DNA of 64,000 bases from Enterobacteria phage vB_EcoM_IME540. Position numbers and translations under genes: made by a program. The notes beneath the pieces were generated by a model. The model made no database searches. It had not been told where the DNA came from and saw only the letters and a list, made by a program, of their open reading frames with translations. Shown one piece after another: positions 6,573 to 63,770 of this stretch. The DNA lies in the sequence record MT150133.1, one strand, 5' to 3'. Positions within the stretch are counted from its first letter, which is position 1, and every line of letters begins with the position of its first letter.

Positions 6573-6938
6573 TTAGATGTCGAATTCGTTCAGAACTACA
6601 TCAAAGATTGCTTCCAGGTGTTCAGGTTTAGCTCGGTTGCTCAGGATGTGACGAATCCAAGTTTTAACCAGAAGCTTACGATTAACACCGTTCCAGCAAG
6701 GATGGGTACCTAAATCACGTTGACGGAAATCATCATCTAAAGCGATTTTAAAAGTAGAACCTTCCATTGTGATTGAAACCGTAATACCATTTTCAAAGCG
6801 CATATAAACGTAGTTAGGAGTCATGCACTGTTCGATTTCGCACACCGCGCCGTTGTTGTGTTTCCACAGGCAAATAACTTCAGAAGAACCAGCGATACCG
6901 TTAGAAACATATTTACGTTCGAAGTTGATGTAGTTCAT
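6573..6938 (-). CDS. hypothetical protein
   Basis: ORF track; own early promoter and GGAGAA Shine-Dalgarno upstream. Confidence 0.5.
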   Translation of the reverse strand: MNYINFERKYVSNGIAGSSEVICLWKHNNGAVCEIEQCMTPNYVYMRFENGITVSITMEGSTFKIALDDDFRQRDLGTHPCWNGVNRKLLVKTWIRHILSNRAKPEHLEAIFDVVLNEFDI

Positions 6939-6974
6939 TTTATTCTCCAGTTTGTTTTCGTATTATTTGGTACA

Positions 6975-7010
6975 GGTCTATAATAACACAACCTGTACCA
7001 AAGTAAAACA
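6975..7010 (-). promoter_or_regulatory. early promoter (T4 early type)
   Basis: TTTTAC, 17 bp, TG-extended TATTAT on minus strand; ~35-nt leader with GGAGAA to ATG at 6938. Confidence 0.45.
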
Positions 7011-7011
7011 T

Positions 7012-7344
7012 TTATTTCACAACATTCCAATTTTTCATATCAAGTTTACCAACTTTTTTCATCTGAGCAATCAGACGTTCAGCACGTGTACGGGCATTAA
7101 CATAATAGAATTCACCATTTTTGTTTTCTTCAATACGACCAGTAATTACAGTTTTCAGTTCATAAATCCAACCTGTAAAGAAGTTGTGAAGCTCGATGGT
7201 GAATGTAAAATCAGTACCCATACCTTCAGTTGTTTCAACTTCGATGATATCACCTTCAACTGCAGTCAGGACCCACATGGTTTCTTGATATTCACCGTTG
7301 AAACATTTAGCTTTAACAGATGCATTCAGATTTACAGTTTTCAT
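7012..7344 (-). CDS. hypothetical protein
   Basis: ORF track; own early promoter; 5' leader duplicated with that of 6573..6938. Confidence 0.5.
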   Translation of the reverse strand: MKTVNLNASVKAKCFNGEYQETMWVLTAVEGDIIEVETTEGMGTDFTFTIELHNFFTGWIYELKTVITGRIEENKNGEFYYVNARTRAERLIAQMKKVGKLDMKNWNVVK

Positions 7345-7382
7345 TTTATTCTCCAGTTTGTTTTAGTATTATTTGGTACATG

Positions 7383-7416
7383 TCTATAGTATCATGCCTA
7401 CCGGAGATGTACACCC
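7383..7416 (-). promoter_or_regulatory. early promoter
   Basis: GTGTAC, 17 bp, TG-extended TACTAT; directly downstream of the 7443..7460 terminator. Confidence 0.5.
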
Positions 7417-7442
7417 TTTTTTAAAGATTTAGAAACAAAAAT

Positions 7443-7460
7443 GGGACTCCGAAGAGTCCC
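7443..7460 (-). terminator. rho-independent terminator
   Basis: GGGACUC-UUCG-GAGUCCC followed by AUUUUUGUUUC, directly after the 53-aa ORF stop. Confidence 0.7.
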
Positions 7461-7465
7461 ATAAC

Positions 7466-9225: not shown

Positions 9226-9531
9226 TTAGCCTTCGATTTTTATATAATCAATGCGGACAATATACTTGGTTTCGCCGCCACGAGTTTCTTTACGAACTTC
9301 ACGGACTAATACCAATTCTGGGTTTACATTTACCAATTGGTCAATAACATATTCGATATCACTAGTAGAATGAGTCGAAATTTCGCCAGTAGAATTGCCT
9401 TTAAGCTGTTCAATAACATAAAGTGGACCTACTTTAATAGATTTGATACCTTTTTGGAGAAGAGCATCAATAAATGTATCTGTGTAATCAACAGTAACCA
9501 CTTGTTTAGGTTTTTCAAATAAAATATTCAT
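9226..9531 (-). CDS. hypothetical protein
   Basis: ORF track. Confidence 0.45.
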   Translation of the reverse strand: MNILFEKPKQVVTVDYTDTFIDALLQKGIKSIKVGPLYVIEQLKGNSTGEISTHSTSDIEYVIDQLVNVNPELVLVREVRKETRGGETKYIVRIDYIKIEG

Positions 9532-10306: not shown

Positions 10307-10860
10307 TAGATGGTCTCCAACTTAAGTTGTTTGGTAGTGGTAGCTTGGGTAACGTCGCCTTTAACAATATAACACACTTGTTGGAACGACTTAGTCAAAA
10401 GCTCTTCAGCCTGACGATCGGCTTGTTCCTTTGTGTTATGGCGAGAATGAACTTCAATCTTACCATTTTTAACAATAAGCACTTTCCAATCGGCCGTAGC
10501 TTTTACTGGCTTAGGTTCTGGCTTTACAGCAATACTCGTAGTAGCCAGTGGACGTACTACTTCAATAAAGTATTCGAATTCATGGGCAAAGGCGCCTACT
10601 GAATTAAAAAGAACACTAGTTGCATCATCGGGATTACCTGTGATTTTGCTCAGGTCAACAAACATCAACTCATCGTATACACGAATTCGGCTTACACGTG
10701 GCTTCCCGTTATGGTAATCAATTTCAACTTCAAACGGGTTCATACCTACATACTTGGCAAAAGCTGTATTGAGGCCGTAAGCGCCGTTATTAGTGAATTT
10801 GTTTTTAGTGTATTCACCAACGAACTTATAAAACTTACGCTCTTCAAAGAACTGGCTCAT
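10306..10860 (-). CDS. hypothetical protein
   Basis: ORF track 10306..10971; start moved to ATG at 10860 (MSQFFEE), preceded by GAGGAAA. Confidence 0.45.
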   Translation of the reverse strand: MSQFFEERKFYKFVGEYTKNKFTNNGAYGLNTAFAKYVGMNPFEVEIDYHNGKPRVSRIRVYDELMFVDLSKITGNPDDATSVLFNSVGAFAHEFEYFIEVVRPLATTSIAVKPEPKPVKATADWKVLIVKNGKIEVHSRHNTKEQADRQAEELLTKSFQQVCYIVKGDVTQATTTKQLKLETI

Positions 10861-10922
10861 TTCGATTTCCTCATTTGTTTCGGTAGGACTACTATACCAC
10901 AGTCCTACCATAGTGTAAACAC

Positions 10923-11614: not shown

Positions 11615-12818
<1,204 letters not shown>

Positions 12819-12849
12819 AATAATTTCCTCAATTTTTATAATCCGTAGG

Positions 12850-12885
12850 AGCATTATACTCTGCTCCCAAGAGTTTGTAAACTAC
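12850..12885 (-). promoter_or_regulatory. early promoter
   Basis: GTTTAC, 18 bp, TATAAT. Confidence 0.5.
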
Positions 12886-14114: not shown

Positions 14115-14139
14115 TTTGTTTTCTCCTCATTAGTTGGTA

Positions 14140-14176
14140 AGTCTATACTAACACATTATGAGGAGATGTAAACTAC
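14140..14176 (-). promoter_or_regulatory. early promoter
   Basis: GTTTAC, 17 bp, TG-extended TAGTAT; -35 element overlaps rnlA stop codon. Confidence 0.5.
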
Positions 14177-15321
14177 TCTACCACAATTTCTTTCAAATAT
14201 TTTTCAGGGATTTTGGCCTTATGATTTTTCAAGAACACAGAGTTAATCTGGTCTACAACCGTATCATAATTAATACCGCCTACGTACGCCTGCATAAGAA
14301 TAGAGAACAAGCCTGGGAAGTCCTTAAGGATTAGCTGTCCAGTAACGGCGTAGTCTTTACGGTCGCGGCCCTTGAGTTGGGAATATGCTGCTTCCAACAA
14401 AGCCAATGATTGTTCTAAGTAATCTAAATGGATACGTTCGAAGGCATCGATTTTCTCAATAGCAAACGAATCTGTACTGAACAGACCACGGAGGTCATCG
14501 GTTCCACCTGCAACTACAACTTCAAATAAACGTTCGTTATTGTTAATGGAATCTTTGGTGTGATGCAGTGCACTGTACCAGGCGGTTTTGAGTTTAAAGA
14601 ACGTGCCGTCTTTCAGAACAAAGATGAAACCTTCAATACCCTCTTGTTTACGGATGTTTTCTACGAAATCGCCTTCAGTGAGGTCATAGCTTTCAACCAA
14701 ATGCTTACGCAGGGCCCCATCTTTAAACAGTTCAGCATACGGAATATACTCACCCGTTTCATTATTACGAACGTTCAACAGGATGAGGTTTGTTTCTTGG
14801 TAAGCCAGCACGATACGGTTGGTAGGTGCAACATATTCAAGGTTGCAGGTATACCCGGCTTTGGTGATTTCTTCTAGACGTGCGGCAAAAGCCTCGTTCT
14901 CAGGGCGACGAAGGAAACGTAAAGAATCATATACCATCGATGAATGGATAGAGCCTTTAGATTTAACAGAAAGATACTGTCGGTCCATAAAGGTAGAAAT
15001 CAGAGAACCATCTTCCTTAGCCATTACGAGGTCGATATTTTCTGGCGACAAATCCAGACCGATAGTCATAGGGTTTTCGTCGAGGTTAAAGAACTTTTGC
15101 ATAGGACGAGCAGCAATACGTACCGGACCGTTCTCGTCCATTTCAAACATAATGCCTCGGCACTCTAGTGCGCCGTCTTCCAACCAATCACTGTACGATG
15201 CATAGTTATAACTAAAGATGCGATAGTTGACTCCTAGCGCACTCTGAAAGTCTTTAAAGAAGAACTTAGATTTAGTCGAGTTTTTAACCAGGGCCATCAA
15301 GTTATCATATAATTCAATCAT
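14173..15321 (-). CDS. rnlA: RNA ligase 1 / tail-fibre attachment protein
   Basis: Strong resemblance to T4 gp63 (YRIFSYNYASYSDW...ECRGIMFE...KEDGSL...). Confidence 0.9.
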   Translation of the reverse strand: MIELYDNLMALVKNSTKSKFFFKDFQSALGVNYRIFSYNYASYSDWLEDGALECRGIMFEMDENGPVRIAARPMQKFFNLDENPMTIGLDLSPENIDLVMAKEDGSLISTFMDRQYLSVKSKGSIHSSMVYDSLRFLRRPENEAFAARLEEITKAGYTCNLEYVAPTNRIVLAYQETNLILLNVRNNETGEYIPYAELFKDGALRKHLVESYDLTEGDFVENIRKQEGIEGFIFVLKDGTFFKLKTAWYSALHHTKDSINNNERLFEVVVAGGTDDLRGLFSTDSFAIEKIDAFERIHLDYLEQSLALLEAAYSQLKGRDRKDYAVTGQLILKDFPGLFSILMQAYVGGINYDTVVDQINSVFLKNHKAKIPEKYLKEIVVE

Positions 15322-15968
15322 TACTTTACCTTAAAATTTTCAACCATTTGATAATAGGATACATCAGGATAATTTAAAGCTACCATCTTGCGTTTAAAGG
15401 TTCTATGACCGCATCGGCCCATTTTAACCCAATGTTCGAAAAGCTCCTTTTCGTAAAGCCAATGTTCCTTACGCTTGGAAGAAGGAACTCCTAGGGTTTT
15501 GGTATTAGAATTTGCTTTTAATCCTGAATTTTTTTCAAAGGCCGCTATAAGGCCTCCGTAATGCTCATTAGGATATCCTAATGAAACCGCCAAGCGCCCA
15601 AATCTTCCGTATCCTAATAGACCGTTATTTACCCATAATTCAAAAAGCTCATCATAAAAATACCATTGTGATAATTTATCACCAGTTTTATGACCCCTGC
15701 CTCCAAGAACAACATTTAAACAATATGGGTCCATTAAGGCCTCATAACATACCAATTCCTTTTCTTTATCATAAGCTTCCTGTTCATCTGAATGAAATGA
15801 TAAAATTTCCTTAATAAATCTAAAATTTCTTTTTATATAGGGTAGTTTTACACCACTACCACTATAAATGTCATTTTCAGGGTCCTCGTTAGACCTTTTA
15901 CCTATATAATAGTGGTCTTTAAATGGGCCTTCCATAACTGTAATTTTGTATATGTAATGTTTCTTCAT
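15321..15968 (-). CDS. GIY-YIG homing endonuclease-like protein (Seg-like)
   Basis: N-terminal YIYKIT...YYIGKRS GIY-YIG motifs; start ATG overlaps denA stop in an ATGA arrangement. Confidence 0.65.
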   Translation of the reverse strand: MKKHYIYKITVMEGPFKDHYYIGKRSNEDPENDIYSGSGVKLPYIKRNFRFIKEILSFHSDEQEAYDKEKELVCYEALMDPYCLNVVLGGRGHKTGDKLSQWYFYDELFELWVNNGLLGYGRFGRLAVSLGYPNEHYGGLIAAFEKNSGLKANSNTKTLGVPSSKRKEHWLYEKELFEHWVKMGRCGHRTFKRKMVALNYPDVSYYQMVENFKVK

Positions 15969-20025: not shown

Positions 20026-20250
20026 TCAGTCCTTAGGTTTACAGGTACACGCTATACGCATACCTCTAAGGGTTTCAAGATGTTCTCTTTTAATTTCGCC
20101 CGATTTTATTTTAGCAATAAAGTATTCTTTAAAGTTCTTGATGTTTTCCTCGCGGGTTCCATCTTTAAATGGATTACCCCACATAGTTCCACGTTGGATA
20201 TTGACATCAAAGTCTTCTTTATACTTGTTAACAACTCTGCAAACTCTCAT
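20026..20250 (-). CDS. hypothetical protein (GNPF...CxC motif)
   Basis: ORF track 20026..20376 trimmed to internal ATG to avoid 65-nt overlap with td. Confidence 0.4.
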   Translation of the reverse strand: MRVCRVVNKYKEDFDVNIQRGTMWGNPFKDGTREENIKNFKEYFIAKIKSGEIKREHLETLRGMRIACTCKPKD

Positions 20251-20311
20251 TATAGCACCAAATTCAGCCCAACCATAATAACCAAAAACAGAGTACAGAT
20301 TATTTGAATTT

Positions 20312-21997
<1,686 letters not shown>

Positions 21998-22017
21998 TTT
22001 ATTCTCCTTAGTTGATA

Positions 22018-22055
22018 AGGCTATAGTATCACTACCATAGCCTGGTGTAAACTTA
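22018..22055 (-). promoter_or_regulatory. early promoter
   Basis: GTTTAC, 18 bp, TG-extended TACTAT; -10 embedded in palindrome GGCTATAG..CATAGCC. Confidence 0.55.
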
Positions 22056-22298
22056 TTTTTGAATTAAGCCCATATAAAATTTAGCGTCTTCCGGGTGCAT
22101 ACCGTCACAATACTCGTCAGCCATAAAGCGGGTAAGGTCTTCAAGAGGACCTTGGACTTCAATTTGCATACTACAGAATTGAGTATCTTTAATATGGGTC
22201 ATAACTAAAGAAGGATAACGATTACGGATAACTTCGTAAGTGTATTCAAAATCAACGATATCAATATTAACCTTAGCCATTTTATTTTCCTCACTCAT
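22053..22298 (-). CDS. hypothetical protein
   Basis: ORF track; own early promoter. Confidence 0.45.
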
Positions 22299-22307
22299 TA
22301 GTTGATA

Positions 22308-22344
22308 GGTCTATAGTATCATGTTTAAAGGCGTTGTAAACATT
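22308..22344 (-). promoter_or_regulatory. early promoter
   Basis: GTTTAC, 17 bp, TG-extended TACTAT; ~45-bp cassette nearly identical to 23020..23056. Confidence 0.6.
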
Positions 22345-22604
22345 TATTTTTGAATTTTATCAAGCCATTTACCAAGTTTAATCATTTCTTTGGTAGCTTT
22401 TTCCATACTTCTAAATTTAACCAGTAAAGGTTGGGCATCAACACCCATAACTAAGGTGGTTACAAGACTATGTTCACCTACAAGCCATAATGAATAAGTT
22501 TGGATATCGAGCCCGTAATTTCGGTCTTTATGAACTCGTACACCCATCACTTCAAATTTCTCACTGGCTTTTTCTACTGCATCCAGGAAATCATCTTTAG
22601 TCAT
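22344..22604 (-). CDS. hypothetical protein
   Basis: ORF track trimmed to ATG at 22604, immediately after upstream stop. Confidence 0.4.
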   Translation of the reverse strand: MTKDDFLDAVEKASEKFEVMGVRVHKDRNYGLDIQTYSLWLVGEHSLVTTLVMGVDAQPLLVKFRSMEKATKEMIKLGKWLDKIQK

Positions 22605-22605
22605 A

Positions 22606-22995
22606 TTAGGCCTTAAAAGTTTTTTGCAAAAGTTCAATGATTTGGTCAACGTTCTGTTCGGTGACAATGCAATGGATTTGAGTCACACCGGCCTTAGCAA
22701 TAGGCTCATCGATTTCTTTATCTTCCACAACATATTCACGGAAGCAATAGAACTCGTCTTCATGCAACTCAAAATAATTTGGCACCAACCCAACTTCATT
22801 ATAAATCTCGCCGTTAGCGCATTCGATTTCAGTCACAAATTTGTCGCCATCCATAGTCACCATATCCTTTACTTCAAACCAACCGCCGTTGTCTTGGATA
22901 AGGCCGACCATGCTTTTATTATTTTCATATTCGTCCATTTCAATAAAGTCTTTAATGCATTCAGGACGAAGTTCATAAGTTTTACCGATTTCCAT
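22606..22995 (-). CDS. hypothetical protein
   Basis: ORF track; own early promoter. Confidence 0.45.
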   Translation of the reverse strand: MEIGKTYELRPECIKDFIEMDEYENNKSMVGLIQDNGGWFEVKDMVTMDGDKFVTEIECANGEIYNEVGLVPNYFELHEDEFYCFREYVVEDKEIDEPIAKAGVTQIHCIVTEQNVDQIIELLQKTFKA

Positions 22996-23019
22996 TTTTA
23001 TTTCCTCATGTAGTTGATA

Positions 23020-23056
23020 GGTCTATAGTATCATGTTTAAAGGCGTTGTAAACCAT
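23020..23056 (-). promoter_or_regulatory. early promoter
   Basis: GTTTAC, 17 bp, TG-extended TACTAT; repeat of the 22308 cassette. Confidence 0.6.
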
Positions 23057-23105
23057 TAAATGCCAAAAAGGGAAGACCGAAGTCTTCCCATTATAAATCA
23101 ATAAC

Positions 23106-24011
23106 TTATAGACCAGCTAACAGGTCGTCCAGACCATCGTCATCAGAAGGACTTACTGACGGCTCAGGAGTAGTGGAACGAGTCGGTGTAGATGGTTTAG
23201 AATCATATGCATCAAGGTCTGCACTGAATGCGTCCAGGTCATCACCAATCTTATCAGCGGCTGCAGAAGCTTTAGCGGCAGCACCACCAAGAGCAGCTGT
23301 ACCAACAACTTTCTTAAACTTGGCTTCGTTAGTTTCGAATGATTTGAAATCGAGCAGTTTAGAAAGGTCGTGCATTTCTTCCATCAATTTAGCTTGGTAA
23401 GCTTCATCATTGATGTTAGGAATTTCAGACTGACCCATGAATTTGGAATCGTCGTAGTTCTTGAAGTCGCCAACTTTCTTAGATTTCAGTACGAAGTTCG
23501 CACCATCAAACGGACATGTTACGTCAACCGGCACTTCACCAATATCAGTATCAACTTCAACCATCTGGTTGATTTTATCCATAATTTTCTGACCGAAACG
23601 GAATTTAAACACTTTACCTTCGTTAGCAGGTACTGCACTATCCTTAATAACAAGGATGTTAGCCCAGAAGGAAGTTTTACGTTTCATCAGTTTGTATTCG
23701 GCATTATTAGTATTAAAGGTATCATTCTGGTTCATGTATTTACATACAGGACATGAATCGAAATCACCATGAGTAGACGTACATGATTCGATATACCACT
23801 GACCATTTTTCTTAAAACCATGGTTAACAAGCTTAACGAATGGGGATGGATTAGCTTCGTTTTTCGAAGGAAGGAATCGAATAACTGCGGTTCCTACGCC
23901 ATTGTCATCTTTCAATTTCCATTCGGATTTGTCATCAGACGAGAAAGAAGAGCCACCTTTCATTGCAGACAGTTGAGCAGCAAGTTCAGCAGGATTACGG
24001 CGTTTAAACAT
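23106..24011 (-). CDS. 32: single-stranded DNA-binding protein
   Basis: Near-colinear with T4 gp32 (MFKRR...AVIRFLPSK...acidic C-terminus); start at MFKRR. Confidence 0.92.
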
Positions 24012-24060
24012 AGACATATTATTTACCTTATTTGATATATTTAATAAATTTATTAACAGT
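24012..24060 (-). promoter_or_regulatory. gene 32 5' leader, candidate autoregulatory translational operator
   Basis: A/U-rich unstructured leader (TTAATAAATTTATTAAATATATCAAATAAGGTAAATAAT before ATG) like the T4 gene 32 operator. Confidence 0.4.
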
Positions 24061-24115
24061 TGTTGTTATCACGTTTACCTTGATAACTAGGTTTTGAAGA
24101 TGAAGTAATTATATA

Positions 24116-24733
24116 TCACTTCGAATAAAGCATTTTTAACTTAATGAATTCAGGGTCATCATTAGGAACCCAACCCTCATTAAATTGTTTAATCATACTC
24201 TTTGATGTAGTTTCACTAACATTTATACCAGAGTTAATGAGACGCCTCCATCCACAAGCTCTTCCACTAGAATTAATTATACAATAATTAGTATAAGCAA
24301 TATCACTAAGCATCCAATCTAAAGGGTTTGCTCTAGAAGTTTTCCAAGGACGGTAATCGGGTTGATTCATATAGTTAGCAGCTTTCATATGGGCTCTAAC
24401 TTCAGGACGTTTGGCTGGGTGAGTGCATCCAAAGACTCCAAATCCGCCACCGGCATAAACCAAATTAAAATAATCATCATTATCTCTAGCTTGAACTTCC
24501 AATTGTTCTGAACGTTCAATATTAATAACAATATCAAATGGCGTTATAGCCAAAATTTCAACAATAGGTTTTTCTTCTTCGATGGCCTCTTTAAATCTTG
24601 ATTGCTCGCAAGAGGTCCAATACTCTTTACCTTTACAGTCAATAATCACGCCATTTTCAAAAGTACAATTAGTTTTAGAACCTATGTACGAAAACGGCTT
24701 AATATTATTAGCCTGACGATTAAGCCAAGTCAT
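24116..24733 (-). CDS. unassigned protein between genes 59 and 32
   Basis: ORF track 24116..24760 (track start is TTG); first ATG at 24733; no Shine-Dalgarno seen; no family recognised by eye. Confidence 0.5.
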   Translation of the reverse strand: MTWLNRQANNIKPFSYIGSKTNCTFENGVIIDCKGKEYWTSCEQSRFKEAIEEEKPIVEILAITPFDIVINIERSEQLEVQARDNDDYFNLVYAGGGFGVFGCTHPAKRPEVRAHMKAANYMNQPDYRPWKTSRANPLDWMLSDIAYTNYCIINSSGRACGWRRLINSGINVSETTSKSMIKQFNEGWVPNDDPEFIKLKMLYSK

Positions 24734-24747
24734 TTTATAAACTATAT

Positions 24748-25401
24748 TCAAAATTTGCAACCCTTAATTGTTTCGATGAACAATTTACGAGCTTCTAAAT
24801 TATCAATTATAAGAATTTTCTTATAAGCATTTAATTTAGTCGAATACTTAGACCACACTAAATCGTTGGTCTGTTCATCATGTTTATCAATTATATCCAT
24901 AAATGAATCAAGCAAAATAAACGTTTCGAATGAAATAACATTCGATTGAAGGAGCTTAAAAATATAGCTCGAGTTAACTTTTTTATTATAATCAAAAATT
25001 TCAGAAAGCGCTTGAACTTCCACTTTCTTACTAAAATAATAAATGTTTTTGATATCATCCTCAAAAACTTGTTTTATTCTTTTAAGTCTACCGATATATT
25101 CTCGGTAAAAGACTAAGGCGTCAGCATCACTGATGTCGCCAATCCATGCGTCTTGGTTAGCCACCAAGTTACTCATGAAGATAAGAGCAAGCTCTTTCAA
25201 AGTGTATTTATCACTCAATTTCTCAAAGAAATATTTGTCACGACGTTTTTGATAAGCCGTATCAGAGATTCGCATGACCCAGTTATATTTGATAACGTCG
25301 TATTTGGCGTTGAAGTGATGCTTAAGTTGCAAATATAAAGAATACACGCTCTTACCATTCACCATACGATTATTGTTTGGCGGCATACGAATCTTAATCA
25401 T
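24748..25401 (-). CDS. 59: helicase loader / gp59
   Basis: 217 aa, near-colinear with T4 gp59 (MIKIRMP...YDVIKYNW...ANQDAWIGDISDADALVFYREY). Confidence 0.9.
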   Translation of the reverse strand: MIKIRMPPNNNRMVNGKSVYSLYLQLKHHFNAKYDVIKYNWVMRISDTAYQKRRDKYFFEKLSDKYTLKELALIFMSNLVANQDAWIGDISDADALVFYREYIGRLKRIKQVFEDDIKNIYYFSKKVEVQALSEIFDYNKKVNSSYIFKLLQSNVISFETFILLDSFMDIIDKHDEQTNDLVWSKYSTKLNAYKKILIIDNLEARKLFIETIKGCKF

Positions 25402-26080
25402 GATATTTCCATCCAGTCCACTTATCGCTTTTTAATCTGTAACTAACCAAACTATTGGATATTCCGAATTTGGAAGCCACTTCAGAACATGAATCATAAC
25501 ATATTCCATCGATAAGCAATTTCTTTTTGTATAAGTCTTTAAAAGATTGTGGCCTAGGTCCTGTATTTGCCTTAAGAAGAGCAGCTCTTGTACTATCAGG
25601 CATTTTAGGTCCTTTCTTACCTGCTCTGGATTTACTTAGAGCTTTTCGATGTGCATCGGTAAGATTAATACCTTTATTTGGTGAAGGTATATTTCTAAGT
25701 CTTCTTGTTATAGAAACTTTTTTACAAACACTATCAGGTCGTGGAATACCTAATTTAGATTTACTTATAGCAAGTTTATGTTCTTCAGATATTTTCTTAC
25801 CAAGTCCACCTTTACCGCCAACAACCAAATTATAAGTATTCGGGTCTGAAACAAATTCTTCGTTAACGAGTTCTCGCTCTTTATCAAAGGCCTCCTCTTG
25901 GGAATCCATAACAAAGAGAATTTCTTTTTCAAAATTCTCTATACCATGTTTTAATATAGCCTTCTTAATTAACTTACCTGAACCCATATAATGGTCATGG
26001 CGTTTGGTTTCTTTATGCACACCGATATAAATTTTACCATTCAATTTATTGGTTACTTTATATACGGTGTGTTTAATCAT
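25394..26080 (-). CDS. GIY-YIG homing endonuclease (Seg/I-TevI-like)
   Basis: VYKVTN...GKIYIGV GIY-YIG core, NUMOD3-like repeats, C-terminal region resembling the I-TevI DNA-binding domain; ATGA overlap with gene 33 stop. Confidence 0.8.
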   Translation of the reverse strand: MIKHTVYKVTNKLNGKIYIGVHKETKRHDHYMGSGKLIKKAILKHGIENFEKEILFVMDSQEEAFDKERELVNEEFVSDPNTYNLVVGGKGGLGKKISEEHKLAISKSKLGIPRPDSVCKKVSITRRLRNIPSPNKGINLTDAHRKALSKSRAGKKGPKMPDSTRAALLKANTGPRPQSFKDLYKKKLLIDGICYDSCSEVASKFGISNSLVSYRLKSDKWTGWKYHD

Positions 26081-27587: not shown

Positions 27588-27613
27588 ATGAACCTCTGTT
27601 CAAGTAGTTGAGA

Positions 27614-27650
27614 GGTCCATTATATCATGGGTTTTAAGGAAGTAAACATC
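27614..27650 (-). promoter_or_regulatory. early promoter for rnh
   Basis: GTTTAC, 17 bp, TG-extended TATAAT. Confidence 0.6.
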
Positions 27651-38676: not shown

Positions 38677-38713
38677 GGGCTATACTAACATATCCTTAGG
38701 GATTGTAAACATG
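38677..38713 (-). promoter_or_regulatory. early promoter for asiA
   Basis: GTTTAC, 17 bp, TG-extended TAGTAT. Confidence 0.55.
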
Positions 38714-40682: not shown

Positions 40683-40715
40683 TTTGTATCTCCATTTCAC
40701 TCTATTGTTTTGATA

Positions 40716-40751
40716 GGTCTATAGTATCATGTTTAAAGCAGAAGTAAACAC
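40716..40751 (-). promoter_or_regulatory. early promoter for motA
   Basis: GTTTAC, 17 bp, TG-extended TACTAT (gataggtctatagtatcatg cassette). Confidence 0.6.
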
Positions 40752-40772
40752 TTTTTTCACTAAACCCAAAAA

Positions 40773-40789
40773 AGAACCCGAAGGTTCCT
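40773..40789 (-). terminator. rho-independent terminator
   Basis: GGAACC-UUCG-GGUUC followed by UUUUUUGGGUUU on minus strand. Confidence 0.6.
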
Positions 40790-43054: not shown

Positions 43055-43131
43055 ATCAATTTCCTCAGTAGATTAATGTTTTGTTATCCGGTCAACGAGA
43101 ACCATTATAACATGATTCTCGAGGTTGTAAA

Positions 43132-43476
43132 CTATTTTTGTAGCTGTTCTAAAATAAATCCGCTGGTGTAAAGGCTTGCATTATACAGGCGGTCAAGAGA
43201 TAACGAATCCAATCCATAAGCTTCACGAATTGCATTGATAGCACTCTCATAACTTGTATAATAAACATCGCGATAATCGCGGTCCATAGTCATGCGGAAC
43301 TTAATAAATTTGTAGAAACCAGTTTCAGGGTCCTGATAGAATGCAAATTCTGCAGACGCTAAATTTTTAAGGTTAACAGCTTTTGTGTCGCCTGAATAAC
43401 TTAAATCAAATGTTTCTGACATGCTAATCTGTTTAAAGAACATAATGTTGCGATTACCAAAAAATAATTTAGACAT
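43132..43476 (-). CDS. hypothetical protein
   Basis: ORF track trimmed to MSKLFFG ATG with AAGGAAA Shine-Dalgarno. Confidence 0.45.
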   Translation of the reverse strand: MSKLFFGNRNIMFFKQISMSETFDLSYSGDTKAVNLKNLASAEFAFYQDPETGFYKFIKFRMTMDRDYRDVYYTSYESAINAIREAYGLDSLSLDRLYNASLYTSGFILEQLQK

Positions 43477-43841: not shown

Positions 43842-43877
43842 GGTCTATAATATCATGATTAATGGAGATGTATACTG
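43842..43877 (-). promoter_or_regulatory. early promoter
   Basis: GTATAC, 17 bp, TG-extended TATTAT. Confidence 0.45.
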
Positions 43878-44255: not shown

Positions 44256-44292
44256 GGAAGATAGTAACACCATCCATGGCGTATGTAAACAC
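44256..44292 (-). promoter_or_regulatory. early promoter
   Basis: GTTTAC, 18 bp, TG-extended TACTAT. Confidence 0.5.
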
Positions 44293-48737: not shown

Positions 48738-49047
48738 TTTTAACTACCTCATGTTGAACATATTCTCTGGTAGAACCTAGTTCAGCCAGAATTCTTCTCA
48801 TAGAACCCATTGTACTCTTGTGATCCCGATGGCGATACATTATCTCTAAAACCTTTTCCTGGACCACAGGAGAGAGCGCCTGGTTATCTTTAATCTTTAA
48901 GGCAATAGATTTTACAGCCTTAAGGTATTCAAGTCCCTTACCGCTTGTAGTCACTATTCCTTCGTCCTTACAATTTCGTATGGCTGTTTCCATAAAGGAT
49001 AGAGCCAGGTTGTCAGTGTTCACTATACTGTTATCTTGCATAATCAT
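48724..49047 (-). CDS. hypothetical protein
   Basis: ORF track trimmed to ATG at 49047 with GGTGAGAA Shine-Dalgarno. Confidence 0.45.
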   Translation of the reverse strand: MIMQDNSIVNTDNLALSFMETAIRNCKDEGIVTTSGKGLEYLKAVKSIALKIKDNQALSPVVQEKVLEIMYRHRDHKSTMGSMRRILAELGSTREYVQHEVVKNDKL

Positions 49048-49100
49048 ATTCTCACCTCTAGATAATCCTATCATAACCACGGGTCTTTGTAAACCCCGAA

Positions 49101-49118
49101 AAGGGCCCGAAGGCCCTT
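49101..49118 (-). terminator. UUCG tetraloop hairpin / terminator
   Basis: AAGGGCC-UUCG-GGCCCUU followed by UUCGGGGUUU. Confidence 0.5.
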
Positions 49119-51869: not shown

Positions 51870-51894
51870 TTTATTTTCCTCTCATTTGTTGATA

Positions 51895-51931
51895 GGGTAA
51901 TCTTATCACTACCCTACCATATTGTATACTG
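51895..51931 (-). promoter_or_regulatory. early promoter (variant)
   Basis: GTATAC, 18 bp, TAAGAT with palindrome GGGTA..TACCC around -10. Confidence 0.4.
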
Positions 51932-52509: not shown

Positions 52510-52582
52510 AATTTTTCTCTCTTGGTTAAAGGTTTATAATCCATGAGAGCCATTATAACATGGCTCTCGATAAAGTAAACTA

Positions 52583-53338: not shown

Positions 53339-53844
53339 AATTTTCTCATTTCAATAAAATCTACAAGTTCGGCATGGGATTTGCGGAACATTACTTGGCG
53401 GCCGCCGATGACAACCTCATCTTCTGGTATTTCGTAAACAGCGAGGTAAAATCCTTTAGAAGATAATTCTTCACGCTCTTCACGAGTGAACCAGCGCATC
53501 ATATCATACTCGCTGGCAAAAGCAAAATGGTAGAGGTTAACAAACCAACCTGGAATATAATCATCAGAGCCTTCATAATCAGACCGTTTCCACTTGGTTC
53601 TAATGGCTTTATTAGAATTTTCTACCAACAACTTATCTTGACCTGGTAGCGGAATATTTTTATTAATGCTATGATGATGCCTAAAATTAGGTCTGTTGAA
53701 ACCTACTTCCAATAACCAACCTTCACTCCACGGGTCCATTGTACTTCTATATGGAGTCATTTGGATACAGAGGTCTCGACGTATTGTTACAGCATCTTCA
53801 TAATCTAGGATACTGAACGATGACTCCACTCGATAAATTTTCAT
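53335..53844 (-). CDS. hypothetical protein
   Basis: ORF track; own early promoter. Confidence 0.45.
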   Translation of the reverse strand: MKIYRVESSFSILDYEDAVTIRRDLCIQMTPYRSTMDPWSEGWLLEVGFNRPNFRHHHSINKNIPLPGQDKLLVENSNKAIRTKWKRSDYEGSDDYIPGWFVNLYHFAFASEYDMMRWFTREEREELSSKGFYLAVYEIPEDEVVIGGRQVMFRKSHAELVDFIEMRKL

Positions 53845-53866
53845 TTTGTTCTCCTCATGTTGATAG

Positions 53867-53902
53867 GGTAGATAATATCATGTCATGAGGAGAAGTAAAC
53901 AT
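53867..53902 (-). promoter_or_regulatory. early promoter
   Basis: GTTTAC, 17 bp, TG-extended TATTAT. Confidence 0.55.
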
Positions 53903-56451: not shown

Positions 56452-57198
56452 TTAACCTCTAATCAGTGAAAAAATTGAAGCATTCAGCGGAAGACCTTTT
56501 TTCAACTTCATTTTGTCAATAAAAGAAAGGTGTTCTAAACGCTCCAGACCTTGAATAATTTTATCATACATATCGTAACGCGTTTCTGCTTCAGACAATT
56601 TAAACTTGACACGCCAATCAGGCCCACCAATTAAAGATTTAAGACCCTTTTCCATAGTACCTATTGAAGCGTTAGAACCGTGGATACGAGCTTTAACCGC
56701 GATAACAGAAGGGGTCTTATCAGTAGCTCCTGATTTAATAAGGTCTTTAAGACGTTTTTCACGCTTTTTAAGACCTCTTTGGGTATCTTTAATATTTTTA
56801 ACGATTTTACGAATTTTATAATAATTATCGGGGGTAACTTTAAAACTATTAGGCATTTTAGAACTACCTGAAATACGGACCGCTAAACGGGTCTGGGCTC
56901 GTTTCAATTCATCTAGAGACAAATCGGCACGTAAACTGTTGTACTTAACTTTAACTGGGATTACATTACCTTCAATATAACCAATATCGTTATTAAAACG
57001 TTCAAATGAAATCTTATCATTAACTGAATTCTCATCAAAGCACTCGCCTGAATAAGCACACACTTTTTGTTCGAGAAGTCTACGAACATACTTACTAGAT
57101 AGGTTGAAGTCCTTACCGCGTTTATAAGCAGAAGCTTTGGTGTGTTTGCGGCGGTTGTAAACCTTTAACTCAAATTCAGTAGTCATGATTTTTCTCAT
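56452..57198 (-). CDS. hypothetical protein at the position of T4 srd
   Basis: 248 aa, adjacent to dda; own early promoter; assignment by position and size only. Confidence 0.4.
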   Translation of the reverse strand: MRKIMTTEFELKVYNRRKHTKASAYKRGKDFNLSSKYVRRLLEQKVCAYSGECFDENSVNDKISFERFNNDIGYIEGNVIPVKVKYNSLRADLSLDELKRAQTRLAVRISGSSKMPNSFKVTPDNYYKIRKIVKNIKDTQRGLKKREKRLKDLIKSGATDKTPSVIAVKARIHGSNASIGTMEKGLKSLIGGPDWRVKFKLSEAETRYDMYDKIIQGLERLEHLSFIDKMKLKKGLPLNASIFSLIRG

Positions 57199-57219
57199 CT
57201 TACGGACGATTAGTTGATA

Positions 57220-57255
57220 GGTCTATAGTATCATGTTGCTAGGTAAAGTAAACAC
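57220..57255 (-). promoter_or_regulatory. early promoter
   Basis: GTTTAC, 17 bp, TG-extended TACTAT. Confidence 0.6.
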
Positions 57256-57957: not shown

Positions 57958-57994
57958 GAAAGATAGTACCACAAGCTTCCTTGCCTGTAAACTA
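57958..57994 (-). promoter_or_regulatory. early promoter for Mod-like gene
   Basis: GTTTAC/TTTACA, 17-18 bp, TACTAT. Confidence 0.5.
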
Positions 57995-58561: not shown

Positions 58562-58564
58562 ATG

Positions 58565-58585
58565 ACCTCCAGTGATTTAGAGGTC
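58565..58585 (-). promoter_or_regulatory. 5' leader hairpin sequestering the Shine-Dalgarno of the Mod-like gene
   Basis: Inverted repeat GACCTC/GAGGTC with 9-nt loop; 3' arm contains GGAGGU 5 nt before AUG at 58561. Confidence 0.4.
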
Positions 58586-58616
58586 ATTATAACATGAAGG
58601 GAGGAGGTGTAAAACT
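58586..58616 (-). promoter_or_regulatory. early promoter for upstream Mod-like gene
   Basis: TTTTAC, 17 bp, TG-extended TATAAT. Confidence 0.5.
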
Positions 58617-59964: not shown

Positions 59965-60206
59965 AGGAAACCTCGTTTAAATTCAACTTTATCAATATCA
60001 TCAGTCTCGTGACGGATTTCGGCATTAAATTCGATAGAACCGTCTTCATGCATCATAAATGAATGGACAATAACTTCGGTATACCAAGGCGTATAGAAGT
60101 ACTTTTTCAATACATGATTAGCGATAATTTCATCTAAAGTTTTATTTGGTTTAATCCAACGATTTAACATAGCATTCTCCTCTATAAGATAAGACCATCT
60201 TAACAT
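59961..60206 (-). CDS. hypothetical protein
   Basis: ORF track. Confidence 0.4.
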   Translation of the reverse strand: MLRWSYLIEENAMLNRWIKPNKTLDEIIANHVLKKYFYTPWYTEVIVHSFMMHEDGSIEFNAEIRHETDDIDKVEFKRGFL

Positions 60207-60240
60207 AACCTTCTTAGAAAGTAAACCCTTAAAACCAAAA

Positions 60241-60258
60241 AAGGAACCCGAAGGTTCC
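60241..60258 (-). terminator. rho-independent terminator after soc
   Basis: AGGAACC-UUCG-GGUUCCU followed by UUUUUUGGUUUU. Confidence 0.65.
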
Positions 60259-60264
60259 TTATAA

Positions 60265-61061: not shown

Positions 61062-61151
61062 TATATTTTTCCTTTTCAATTCATTAGTAAGTTAGATAAT
61101 TATAAACTGTTAGATTAAAGCGAATAAATATTAATTTAACAGGAGGATAAC

Positions 61152-63732: not shown

Positions 63733-63770
63733 GGTCTATAGTATCACTACCATAGACCGTTGTAAACACT
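63733..63770 (-). promoter_or_regulatory. early promoter for sp-like gene
   Basis: GTTTAC, ~19 bp, TACTAT within palindrome GGTCTATAG..CATAGACC. Confidence 0.45.

Follow-up and report, generated by a model that had tools for sequence, protein, structure and literature searches.

The early promoters (Pe) of phage T4 follow a consensus made up of a UP-like A-tract, GTTTAC, TGn and a -10 box (PMC2988021, PMC1524935), and early promoters of the RB69 type have a C-rich consensus at -3..-1 (PMC1524935). The promoter-early stem-loop (PeSL) elements that Arbiol et al. (2010; PMC2839356) defined in phages RB49 and phi1 combine a sigma-70-like early promoter and an AT-rich tract with a stem-loop, a Shine-Dalgarno sequence (SD) and an ATG. 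They are sorted there into five subclasses according to where the stem sits (upstream, in the spacer from -35 to -10, over either box, or immediately ahead of the start), G-T pairs are marked in the stems, promoter and terminator activity was seen in reporters, and evidence is given for recombination and mini-circles between neighboring cassettes. Comeau et al. (2014; PMC4122927) extended PeSLs to T4/PST and KVP40/nt-1, and phage JS98 comes up in this literature only with regard to PeSL-like sequences near gene 43. In the T4 genes e, soc, 49 and I-TevI, transcription from the proximal promoter starts downstream of the 5′ strand of an inhibitory helix over the SD/AUG; long transcripts are closed and proximal transcripts are open (PMC3014915). 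Here we compare with these systems a stretch of 64,000 nucleotides from Enterobacteria phage vB_EcoM_IME540 (MT150133.1; this whole stretch is called the window below), in which a preliminary description had picked out, at 22018-23056, an array of near-identical early-promoter cassettes, several of them embedded in palindromes. Taken as a whole, the array is quite probably best explained as a set of T4-like early promoters with RNA stems of the PeSL type, which would form only in read-through RNA.

The window comes from a T4-like coliphage of the JS98/Dhakavirus type. A 3-kb piece around the flagged interval is 99% identical to Escherichia phage MX01 and 93–98% identical to other T4-like phages of the Dhakavirus (JS98) group. 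A second piece matches vB_EcoM_FB at 100% identity, and identity between the window and Dhakavirus phages such as these two is 96–100%. With genes assigned by way of MX01 and T4, the interval 22018-23056 is made up of the short intergenic spaces between gene 32 and frd, before frd.2, a gene like ORF232 (ORF, open reading frame) and frd.1.

An early-promoter class with embedded stem-loops

Judged from their sequence, the repeated elements are the phage's sigma-70 early promoter class, with one cassette predicted to head each of at least 23 early genes. We read them in this way because they match the T4 early consensus, because orthologs of T4 early genes lie downstream of them, and because T4, RB69, VR7 and CC31 have equivalents. 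The string GTTTAC-N17-TACTAT, with at most one mismatch, has nine matches in the window, all nine on the minus strand, versus 0.52 expected. A looser scorer (at most one mismatch in GTTTAC, a spacer of 16–19, TAnnnT, and a bonus for TG) gives 27 core matches on the minus strand and 6 on the plus strand, versus a mean of 5.3 and a maximum of 9 in first-order Markov resamples. Directly downstream of 23 of these 27 minus-strand matches are an SD and an ATG that open an ORF of at least 35 aa, and the end of the -10 is 17–49 nt from the ATG. The initial list held 21 promoters, and addition of those of cef (51929) and of a 36-aa ORF (43875) brought it to 23 (Table 1), which bears out the earlier count of at least 18 minus-strand copies close to gene starts.

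All 23 sites have a GTTTAC-like -35 hexamer, a spacer of 17±1 bp and a TAnnnT -10. The general layout is an A-rich tract, GTTTAC, 17–18 bp, TG, TAnnAT, CCTATCAAC, SD and ATG, and the consensus can be written aaaaAa..GTTTAC-(17/18)-caTGaTA.tAT-ag.CCTatcaactaa, with TG before the -10 in 22 of the 23. The UP-like tract aaaaAa is reflected in an A fraction of 0.40 upstream of the -35, versus 0.31 for the whole strand. The CCT at -3..-1 agrees with the C preference of RB69-type promoters, and on this basis +1 was placed at the A of ATCAAC, 7 nt downstream of the -10. “Near-identical” is an apt term for those subsets of cassettes that share spacers, but the remaining ones have in common only the promoter consensus.

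Among the genes behind these promoters are orthologs of the T4 early genes motA, asiA, motB, modA/B, alc, ndd, sp and frd.1/.2. The same rule run on T4 finds promoters before the orthologs dmd, sp, mrh.2, modB, srd, motB.2, motB and rIIA.1, and RB69, VR7 and CC31 have equivalent promoters at the corresponding places. The window elements thus share with T4 early promoters the -35 hexamer, the spacer, the TG extension, the A-rich upstream tract and the orientation, as well as the genes served, including motB, motB.2, modB, mrh.2, sp, srd, motA and asiA (PMC2988021, PMC1524935). They differ in that the -10 is more often TACTAT than TATAAT, and in the conserved CCTATCAAC start region of the window group.

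For analysis of folding, 60 nt from the -35 were taken, z was calculated against dinucleotide shuffles, and z below -2 was called an embedded stem. Such a stem is present at 13 of the 23 promoters, where it overlaps the spacer, the -10 or the leader. The mean z over the first 21 promoters is -2.0, and the promoter set folds more stably than random windows of the same strand (p ~1e-4). Cognate upstream and downstream halves give -12.7 kcal/mol, versus -9.5 for halves exchanged among promoters (permutation p<5e-5), and the cognate ranks first of 23 in 10 of the 23 cases.

Two geometries are seen. In type A, found at 30.7, the ORFs at 10860 and 12818, frd.1, ndd, cef, motB and sp, the -10 lies between the arms or within them, and the stem reaches its end at about -2 to +7. 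In type B (30.8, alc, rnh, the 36-aa ORF, motB.2 and modB) the SD/AUG is paired with a 5′ arm located within the spacer or the -10/discriminator region. At 22018..22055 (frd.1) and 63733..63770 (sp), where the -10 had been placed inside a perfect inverted repeat, it does lie within the 3′ arm, but the stems are of 10–11 bp with one G·T each and so, as DNA, are not perfect. Relative to the predicted +1, the 5′ arms of type A are at -29..-14 and those of type B at -35..-19 and -8..+1; the 5′ arm, and for most elements the entire stem, is upstream of +1, and therefore the RNA that folds must start at an upstream promoter. With +1 at 7 nt after the -10, an element's own promoter would not transcribe the 5′ arm, and the hairpin would exist only in RNA that reads through from an upstream promoter. 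The own leader (+1 to ATG) is nearly unstructured, with a predicted mean dG of -0.8 versus -12.7 kcal/mol for the read-through form.

Thirteen cassettes with an embedded stem and five with an upstream terminator stem have the structure by which PeSLs are defined, and on its architecture we assign the window to this described type and not to a new system. Like PeSLs, the window cassettes combine an AT-rich tract, early promoter, stem-loop, SD and ATG in intergenic spaces; stems between the -35 and -10, over the -10, or upstream as terminators, as well as G-T pairs, occur in both, and in both near-identical cassettes precede unrelated ORFs. There are also differences. The window stems are not of the G-run/C-run type of RB49, many cassettes precede conserved early genes and not ORFans, no cassette-to-cassette indel is seen in the window against its closest relative, and a subset that masks SD/AUG is not described in the PeSL sections consulted.

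Selection on the stems and competing explanations

The stems are selected as sense-strand RNA: compensatory changes are found across genera, and G·U is tolerated while A·C is not. At orthologous promoters in T4, RB69, VR7 and CC31 the pairing is kept and the arm sequences are changed. The arms of the motB stem (window arms in Table 1) are GGGACC/GGTCCC in T4, GGGGCC/GGTCCC in VR7-like phages and GGGGTC/GACCCC at another locus (L012), and those of the sp stem are GGGATAATA/TATTATCCC in VR7 and GGACTA/TAGTCC in RB69. The spacer-to-SD helix of motB.2 is kept in Dhakavirus, Tequatrovirus and Mosigvirus, with covarying extensions (CATG/CATG versus CTGGTT/AACCAG); its arms are TTCTCCTCTGGTT/AACCAGAGGAGAA in RB69, and T4 has a long two-part stem. 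The modB helix, which runs from the 3′ portion of the -10 up to the AUG, is found in five genera, with different arms in T4, RB69, VR7 and CC31 and dG of -20 to -28; this support comes from per-sequence folds, as MAFFT placed the RB69 and VR7 arms one column out of register and so gave no formal pair count. The T4-like phage wV7 has the same 30.7 hairpin and keeps the 30.8 spacer-to-SD pairing with another sequence, TTCCTTTGT/ACAAAGGAG.

Searches for relatives with single proteins (motB, dda) returned 7–9 close relatives, whereas an alignment query with cef reached other genera and gave 29 loci, from which 14 distinct sequences were anchored on the -10 and their pairs counted. In these 14 phages 87% of the cells of the cef stem are paired, versus 33–47% with the partners slid; both sides have changed in 7 of 11 pairs, and none of 500 shuffles reaches the observed covariation. 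In VR7-like phages (L021, which is VR7, and L049/L050) the cef stem is retained as GATAGGGT-aatttt-GCCCTATC with no recognizable GTTTAC/-10, and because it persists there a promoter-independent role of this stem is suggested.

The mismatches inside the stems were counted with inverted repeats scored under an equal penalty for all mismatches; all loci together supplied 127 distinct promoters, and 53 of them have a stem. Of the mismatches, 24 are G·T/T·G, only 1 is A·C/C·A, and there are 7 others (binomial p=8e-7, an optimistic value, as the sequences are related, but the ratio itself is decisive). This excess of G·T over A·C argues for selection on sense-strand RNA and against a protein operator or cruciform.

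The competing explanation that survives best, although we consider it unlikely, is that the stems act mainly as DNA, as recombination hot spots or cruciforms that drive cassette shuffling, and have no role as RNA. The PeSL papers do tie these motifs to indels and mini-circles (PMC2839356, PMC4122927), exact 43-nt and ~50-nt cassette segments stand before unrelated genes, and the 30.7/30.8 leader duplication is not in wV7. But the asymmetry between G·T and A·C indicates sense RNA, the stems are kept at orthologous, non-shuffled positions in core early genes, the indels that separate MX01 from the window are not cassette-to-cassette, and recombination between cassettes requires only homology and not a stem.

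Less probable still is a protein-binding function, one of two that had been suggested for the palindromes, in which they would be DNA operators where a dimeric phage or host protein switches the early promoters off or on. A -10 within or between the arms would be a good location for a repressor, and the mechanism by which T4 early promoters are shut off has been described as not fully understood (PMC3014915, PMC2988021); yet the arms differ from promoter to promoter with no motif in common, orthologous promoters keep the pairing while the arms covary between phages, the arms of type B are 30–50 nt apart, and the mismatch spectrum is not the one expected from recognition of duplex DNA. We give just as little credence to the other suggestion, hairpins at the 5′ end of each promoter's own transcript that would stabilize the RNA or tune translation. 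Some bacterial mRNAs are stabilized by 5′ stem-loops, and an unusually far-upstream start could include part of the stem, but the positions of the 5′ arms in both types and the near absence of structure in the predicted own leaders speak against it. Finally, a chance or compositional artifact of an AT-rich genome, to which a generic TTGACA/TATAAT scan of 21500..24200 might point (no excess, 5 matches versus 9.1 expected, so that the phage-specific GTTTAC motif is needed), can be dismissed as extremely improbable, since the GTTTAC-type motif is strand-specific, far above expectation and placed before ORF starts in synteny with T4 early promoters, and the hairpin z-scores and the half-swap test exclude composition; the covariation at cef refutes it as well.

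Proposed roles of the two stem types

Five promoters without an embedded stem, those of 30.8, frd.2, motA, the ORF at 49047 and mrh.2, have a canonical UUCG-loop terminator hairpin and T-run 15–27 nt upstream. Embedded stems and upstream terminators are mutually exclusive (stems at 0/5 promoters with a terminator and at 13/18 of the others; Fisher p=0.0075), and therefore the embedded stems likely do the same job, at the 3′ side of the upstream unit. The type A stems would most likely act on the 3′ side of the upstream transcription unit, by attenuating or capping it, and in this way insulate neighboring early units in very short intergenic spaces. The cassettes thus resemble Rho-independent terminators and 3′ stabilizer stem-loops in the five canonical upstream hairpins, and differ from them in the embedded stems, which have no U-tract; for that reason the type A stems are not canonical intrinsic terminators. 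They may attenuate transcription, as one PeSL stem did in a lacZ test reported by Arbiol et al. (2010; PMC2839356), or, once the RNA has been cleaved downstream, they may do no more than block 3′ exonucleases.

In type B, the predicted probability that the SD is unpaired is 0.00–0.11 in read-through RNA versus 0.63–0.85 in the own transcript (promoters at 7414, 14173, 27647, 43875, 53900 and 58614), and the pairing of SD/AUG with a segment upstream of the predicted start is kept in orthologs (modB, motB.2 and 30.8). Read-through RNA of these genes would be translationally silent with its GGAG hidden, and RNA from the own promoter would be open. Many of the SDs contain GGAG, the target of RegB, and hairpins or secondary structure block RegB cleavage (PMC3014915), so the helix would also hide the RegB site on the long RNA. 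The helix geometry is exactly that of T4 e, soc, 49 and I-TevI; there the proximal promoter is late and the effect is delayed expression, whereas the window promoter is early, and the model would confine translation to the immediate-early period. We therefore put forward tentatively, as a possibility that we regard as somewhat doubtful, that in modB, motB.2, alc, 30.8 and rnh the promoter doubles as the 5′ strand of an SD/AUG-masking helix, and that these genes are translated only from RNA of their own early promoter, and on read-through or middle-mode RNA are silent and shielded from RegB. If true, this would be an early-promoter counterpart of the late-promoter switch of e, soc, 49 and I-TevI, and immediate-early-only protein synthesis would be hard-wired in at least five genera of Tevenvirinae. 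We considered whether all the stems serve to mask the SD and rejected this, as it holds for a subset only. The modB spacers (58590..58608 in the window; also T4, RB69, VR7 and CC31) are all pyrimidine-rich and anti-SD-like, for example CCTCCTCCC and CCCTCCTCTC, and the spacer is a possible second partner of the SD besides the discriminator arm.

Several points weigh against PeSL-type stems in read-through RNA as the explanation of the whole array. The embedded stems lack a U-tract and are followed by sequences such as ATCAAC or ATGGATT, and T-runs are present only on the five upstream hairpins. Five of the 23 promoters (22341, 38710, 44290, 57253 and 57992) have neither a clear hairpin nor a terminator. 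Masking of the SD is not set-wide, with an accessibility of 0.42 in cognates versus 0.33 in swapped controls and hence not lower, and type A leaves the SD free. The start position was deduced by applying the sigma-70 rule together with the C-rich -3..-1 consensus of RB69-type promoters (PMC1524935), and a literature search found no usable 5′/3′-end mapping for T4. The sequences compared are related, which makes the p-values of the cef covariation as well as of the mismatch spectrum optimistic. Lastly, where the window and MX01 differ by indels, these are for the most part insertions of homing endonucleases or ORF-precise events, rather than an exchange of one cassette with another.

Shared segments, genome context and significance

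An exact run of 43 nt is common to 22341..22299 and 23053..23011, two copies 712 bp apart that flank frd.2 and one further ORF, and this agrees with the ~45 bp of shared sequence reported earlier for these cassettes; the motA cassette (the 40749 copy), reported to carry the same core, has an exact 29-nt run in common with the frd cassettes at 40738..40710. A duplicated leader upstream of 6573..6938 and 7012..7344 was also correctly noted: about 49 of 52 positions are identical from -9 to ATG+5, the longest exact run being 25, while the 30.7-like and 30.8-like proteins are unrelated (BLASTP E=25). This duplication is lineage-specific, as it is not in wV7. The 43-nt, 29-nt and ~50-nt segments before unrelated genes would reflect recombination or gene conversion between cassettes. 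The two frd cassettes have identical spacers in the window and PSD2002 and different ones in MX01, KIT01 and C6, and the order of the frd cassettes is the same in all five of these Dhakaviruses. A reading of TGCTTTA in the spacer of the 40749 cassette as a MotA box (middle promoter) was rejected, as its spacing to the -10 is 7 nt and 11–13 are required.

Table 1. Predicted early promoters, stems and terminators of the window (all on the minus strand; dG in kcal/mol)
Feature	Position	ATG	Sequence and folding
30.7-like gene early promoter	6980..7008	6938	TTTTAC-17-TATTAT
30.7-like hairpin bracketing -10	6966..7002		arms TTTGGTACAGGT/ACCTGTACCAAA, dG -18.8, z -4.5
30.8-like gene early promoter	7386..7414	7344	GTGTAC-17-TACTAT
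30.8-like spacer-to-SD pairing	7400..7407 with SD 7350..7357		TCTCCGGT/ACTGGAGA
Canonical terminator hairpin and T-run	7441..7462		ATGGGACTCTTCGGAGTCCCAT TTTTGTTT; 27 nt upstream of 7414 promoter
cd-region ORF early promoter	10891..10920	10860	hairpin 10881..10910 around -10, GGTAGGACT/AGTCCTACC, dG -16.2, z -2.5
Early promoter	12853..12882	12818	hairpin 12842..12872 around -10, GGGAGC/GCTCC(T), z -3.0
alc early promoter	14145..14173	14114
alc spacer anti-SD	14158..14166 with SD 14122..14130		TCTCCTCAT/ATGAGGAGA; predicted SD unpaired 0.00 in read-through, 0.76 in own transcript
frd.1 early promoter	22023..22052	21997
frd.1 hairpin, -10 within 3′ arm	22018..22043		GGCTATGGTA-gtga-TACTATAGCC, one G·T, dG -15.6, z -3.1
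ORF232-like gene early cassette	22299..22341	22280	copy 1 of exact 43-nt repeat; no embedded hairpin (z +0.6)
frd.2 early cassette	23011..23053	22995	copy 2 of 43-nt repeat; also an independent sigma-70 scan match
Gene 32 terminator hairpin and T-run	23070..23089		GGGAAGACTTCGGTCTTCCC TTTTT; 17 nt upstream of frd.2 promoter
rnh early promoter	27619..27647	27587
rnh hairpin, -10/discriminator with SD and start	27588..27620		ATGGACCTC/GAGGTTCAT; predicted SD unpaired 0.00 in read-through, 0.71 in own transcript
asiA early promoter	38682..38710	38638	GTTTAC-17-TAGTAT; no hairpin
motA early promoter	40710..40749	40682	29 nt common with frd cassettes
Terminator-like hairpin and T-run just upstream of motA promoter	about 40768..40788
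ndd early promoter	43104..43132	43054	hairpin 43097..43120 around -10, GAGAATCAT/ATGGTTCTC, z -2.2
Early-type promoter of 36-aa ORF	43847..43875	43820	GTATAC-17-TATTAT; spacer pairs with SD region, ATCTCCATTA/TAATGGAGAT, z -3.7
ndd-region ORF early promoter	44261..44290	44232	discriminator-SD pairing weak
Early promoter	49065..49094	49047	terminator-like hairpin upstream, GGGCCTTCGGGCCC TTTT, about 49099..49116
cef early promoter	51900..51929	51869	hairpin 51890..51919 around -10, GGTAGGGTA/TACCCTATC, z -4.5
motB early promoter	52552..52580	52509	hairpin 52540..52574 around -10, GAGAGCCAT/ATGGCTCTC, z -5.9
motB.2 early promoter	53872..53900	53844	spacer anti-SD with SD, hairpin 53843..53900, TTCTCCTCATG/CATGAGGAGAA, z -4.9
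srd early promoter	57225..57253	57186	without hairpin, likewise in T4
modA early promoter	57963..57992	57937	small spacer-internal stem ACAGGC/GCTTGT; ACGAG/CTCGT in L015
modB early promoter	58586..58614	58561	hairpin 58562..58587, ATGACCTC/GAGGTCAT; 3′ end of -10 and discriminator pair with SD and AUG
mrh.2 early promoter	60197..60226	60170	terminator upstream 60241..60260, AAGGAACCTTCGGGTTCCTT TTTT
sp early promoter	63738..63767	63709
sp hairpin, -10 within 3′ arm	63733..63758		GGTCTATGGTA-gtga-TACTATAGACC, one G·T, z -3.8

Two further observations concern individual promoters. At 52532..52580 the plus strand is also promoter-like (GTTTAT-18-TAACAT), overlapping the minus-strand motB promoter; the motB stem is nearly symmetrical around TATAAT, and the plus-strand site is probably an artifact of this palindrome. 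In the srd leader (57190..57215, minus strand) the element CGTCCGTAAGATG, just upstream of a weak SD, is nearly unchanged in T4, RB69, VR7 and Dhakaviruses, and it may form a small stem (CGUC/GAUG) or serve as a translational operator.

The gene order of the window is collinear with that of MX01, from alt, gene 30, cd, pseT, alc, nrd, td, frd, 32, rnh and the tail-fiber genes 34–38, through asiA, motA, 52, ndd, rIIB/rIIA, 39, motB, dexA, dda, srd, modA/B, mrh, soc, 56 and 61 to sp. The few indels are two GIY-YIG homing-endonuclease genes, small ORF insertions, a deletion in the dam region and one ORF-precise deletion at an ATGA overlap, and with this inventory cassette-to-cassette recombination was rejected as the cause of the differences from MX01. 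The two minus-strand ORFs 15321..15968 (215 aa, between rnlA and the next gene) and 25394..26080 (228 aa, between genes 59 and 33) have GIY-YIG/Seg-like N-termini, are not in MX01 and account for two of the indels; they are probably free-standing homing endonucleases. The small minus-strand ORFs 9226..9531 (101 aa, next to cd) and 20026..20376 (116 aa, next to td) are likewise in the window and not in MX01. At 61105..61124 about 1.4 kb of MX01 (the dam methyltransferase and ORF28) is missing, and the junction is in a non-coding stretch with a TATAAT-containing sequence. A 161-aa ORF that in MX01 (L001, 13342..13824) lies between the 12882-type promoter and the downstream gene is precisely absent from the window (12815..12819); the junction is an ATG/ATGA overlap, and the window promoter and leader are intact. 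An Rfam scan of the whole window gave no family at gathering score.

The elements fall into described classes and so leave the picture of phage gene regulation as it was, and a T4 specialist will not find them surprising; the covariation, the G·U bias, the terminator exclusivity and the conserved SD/AUG-masking subset are useful refinements of it. For the JS98/Dhakavirus phages, in wide use as therapy candidates, the early transcription map can be read directly from sequence and follows the T4 plan gene by gene. What is added to the PeSL concept is RNA-level selection at orthologous positions in five genera and the probable substitution of stems for terminators, together with a subset that, if the model holds, would gate translation according to which promoter made the RNA. 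These results bear on how T4-like phages insulate dozens of tandem early units in intergenic spaces of 50–70 bp.

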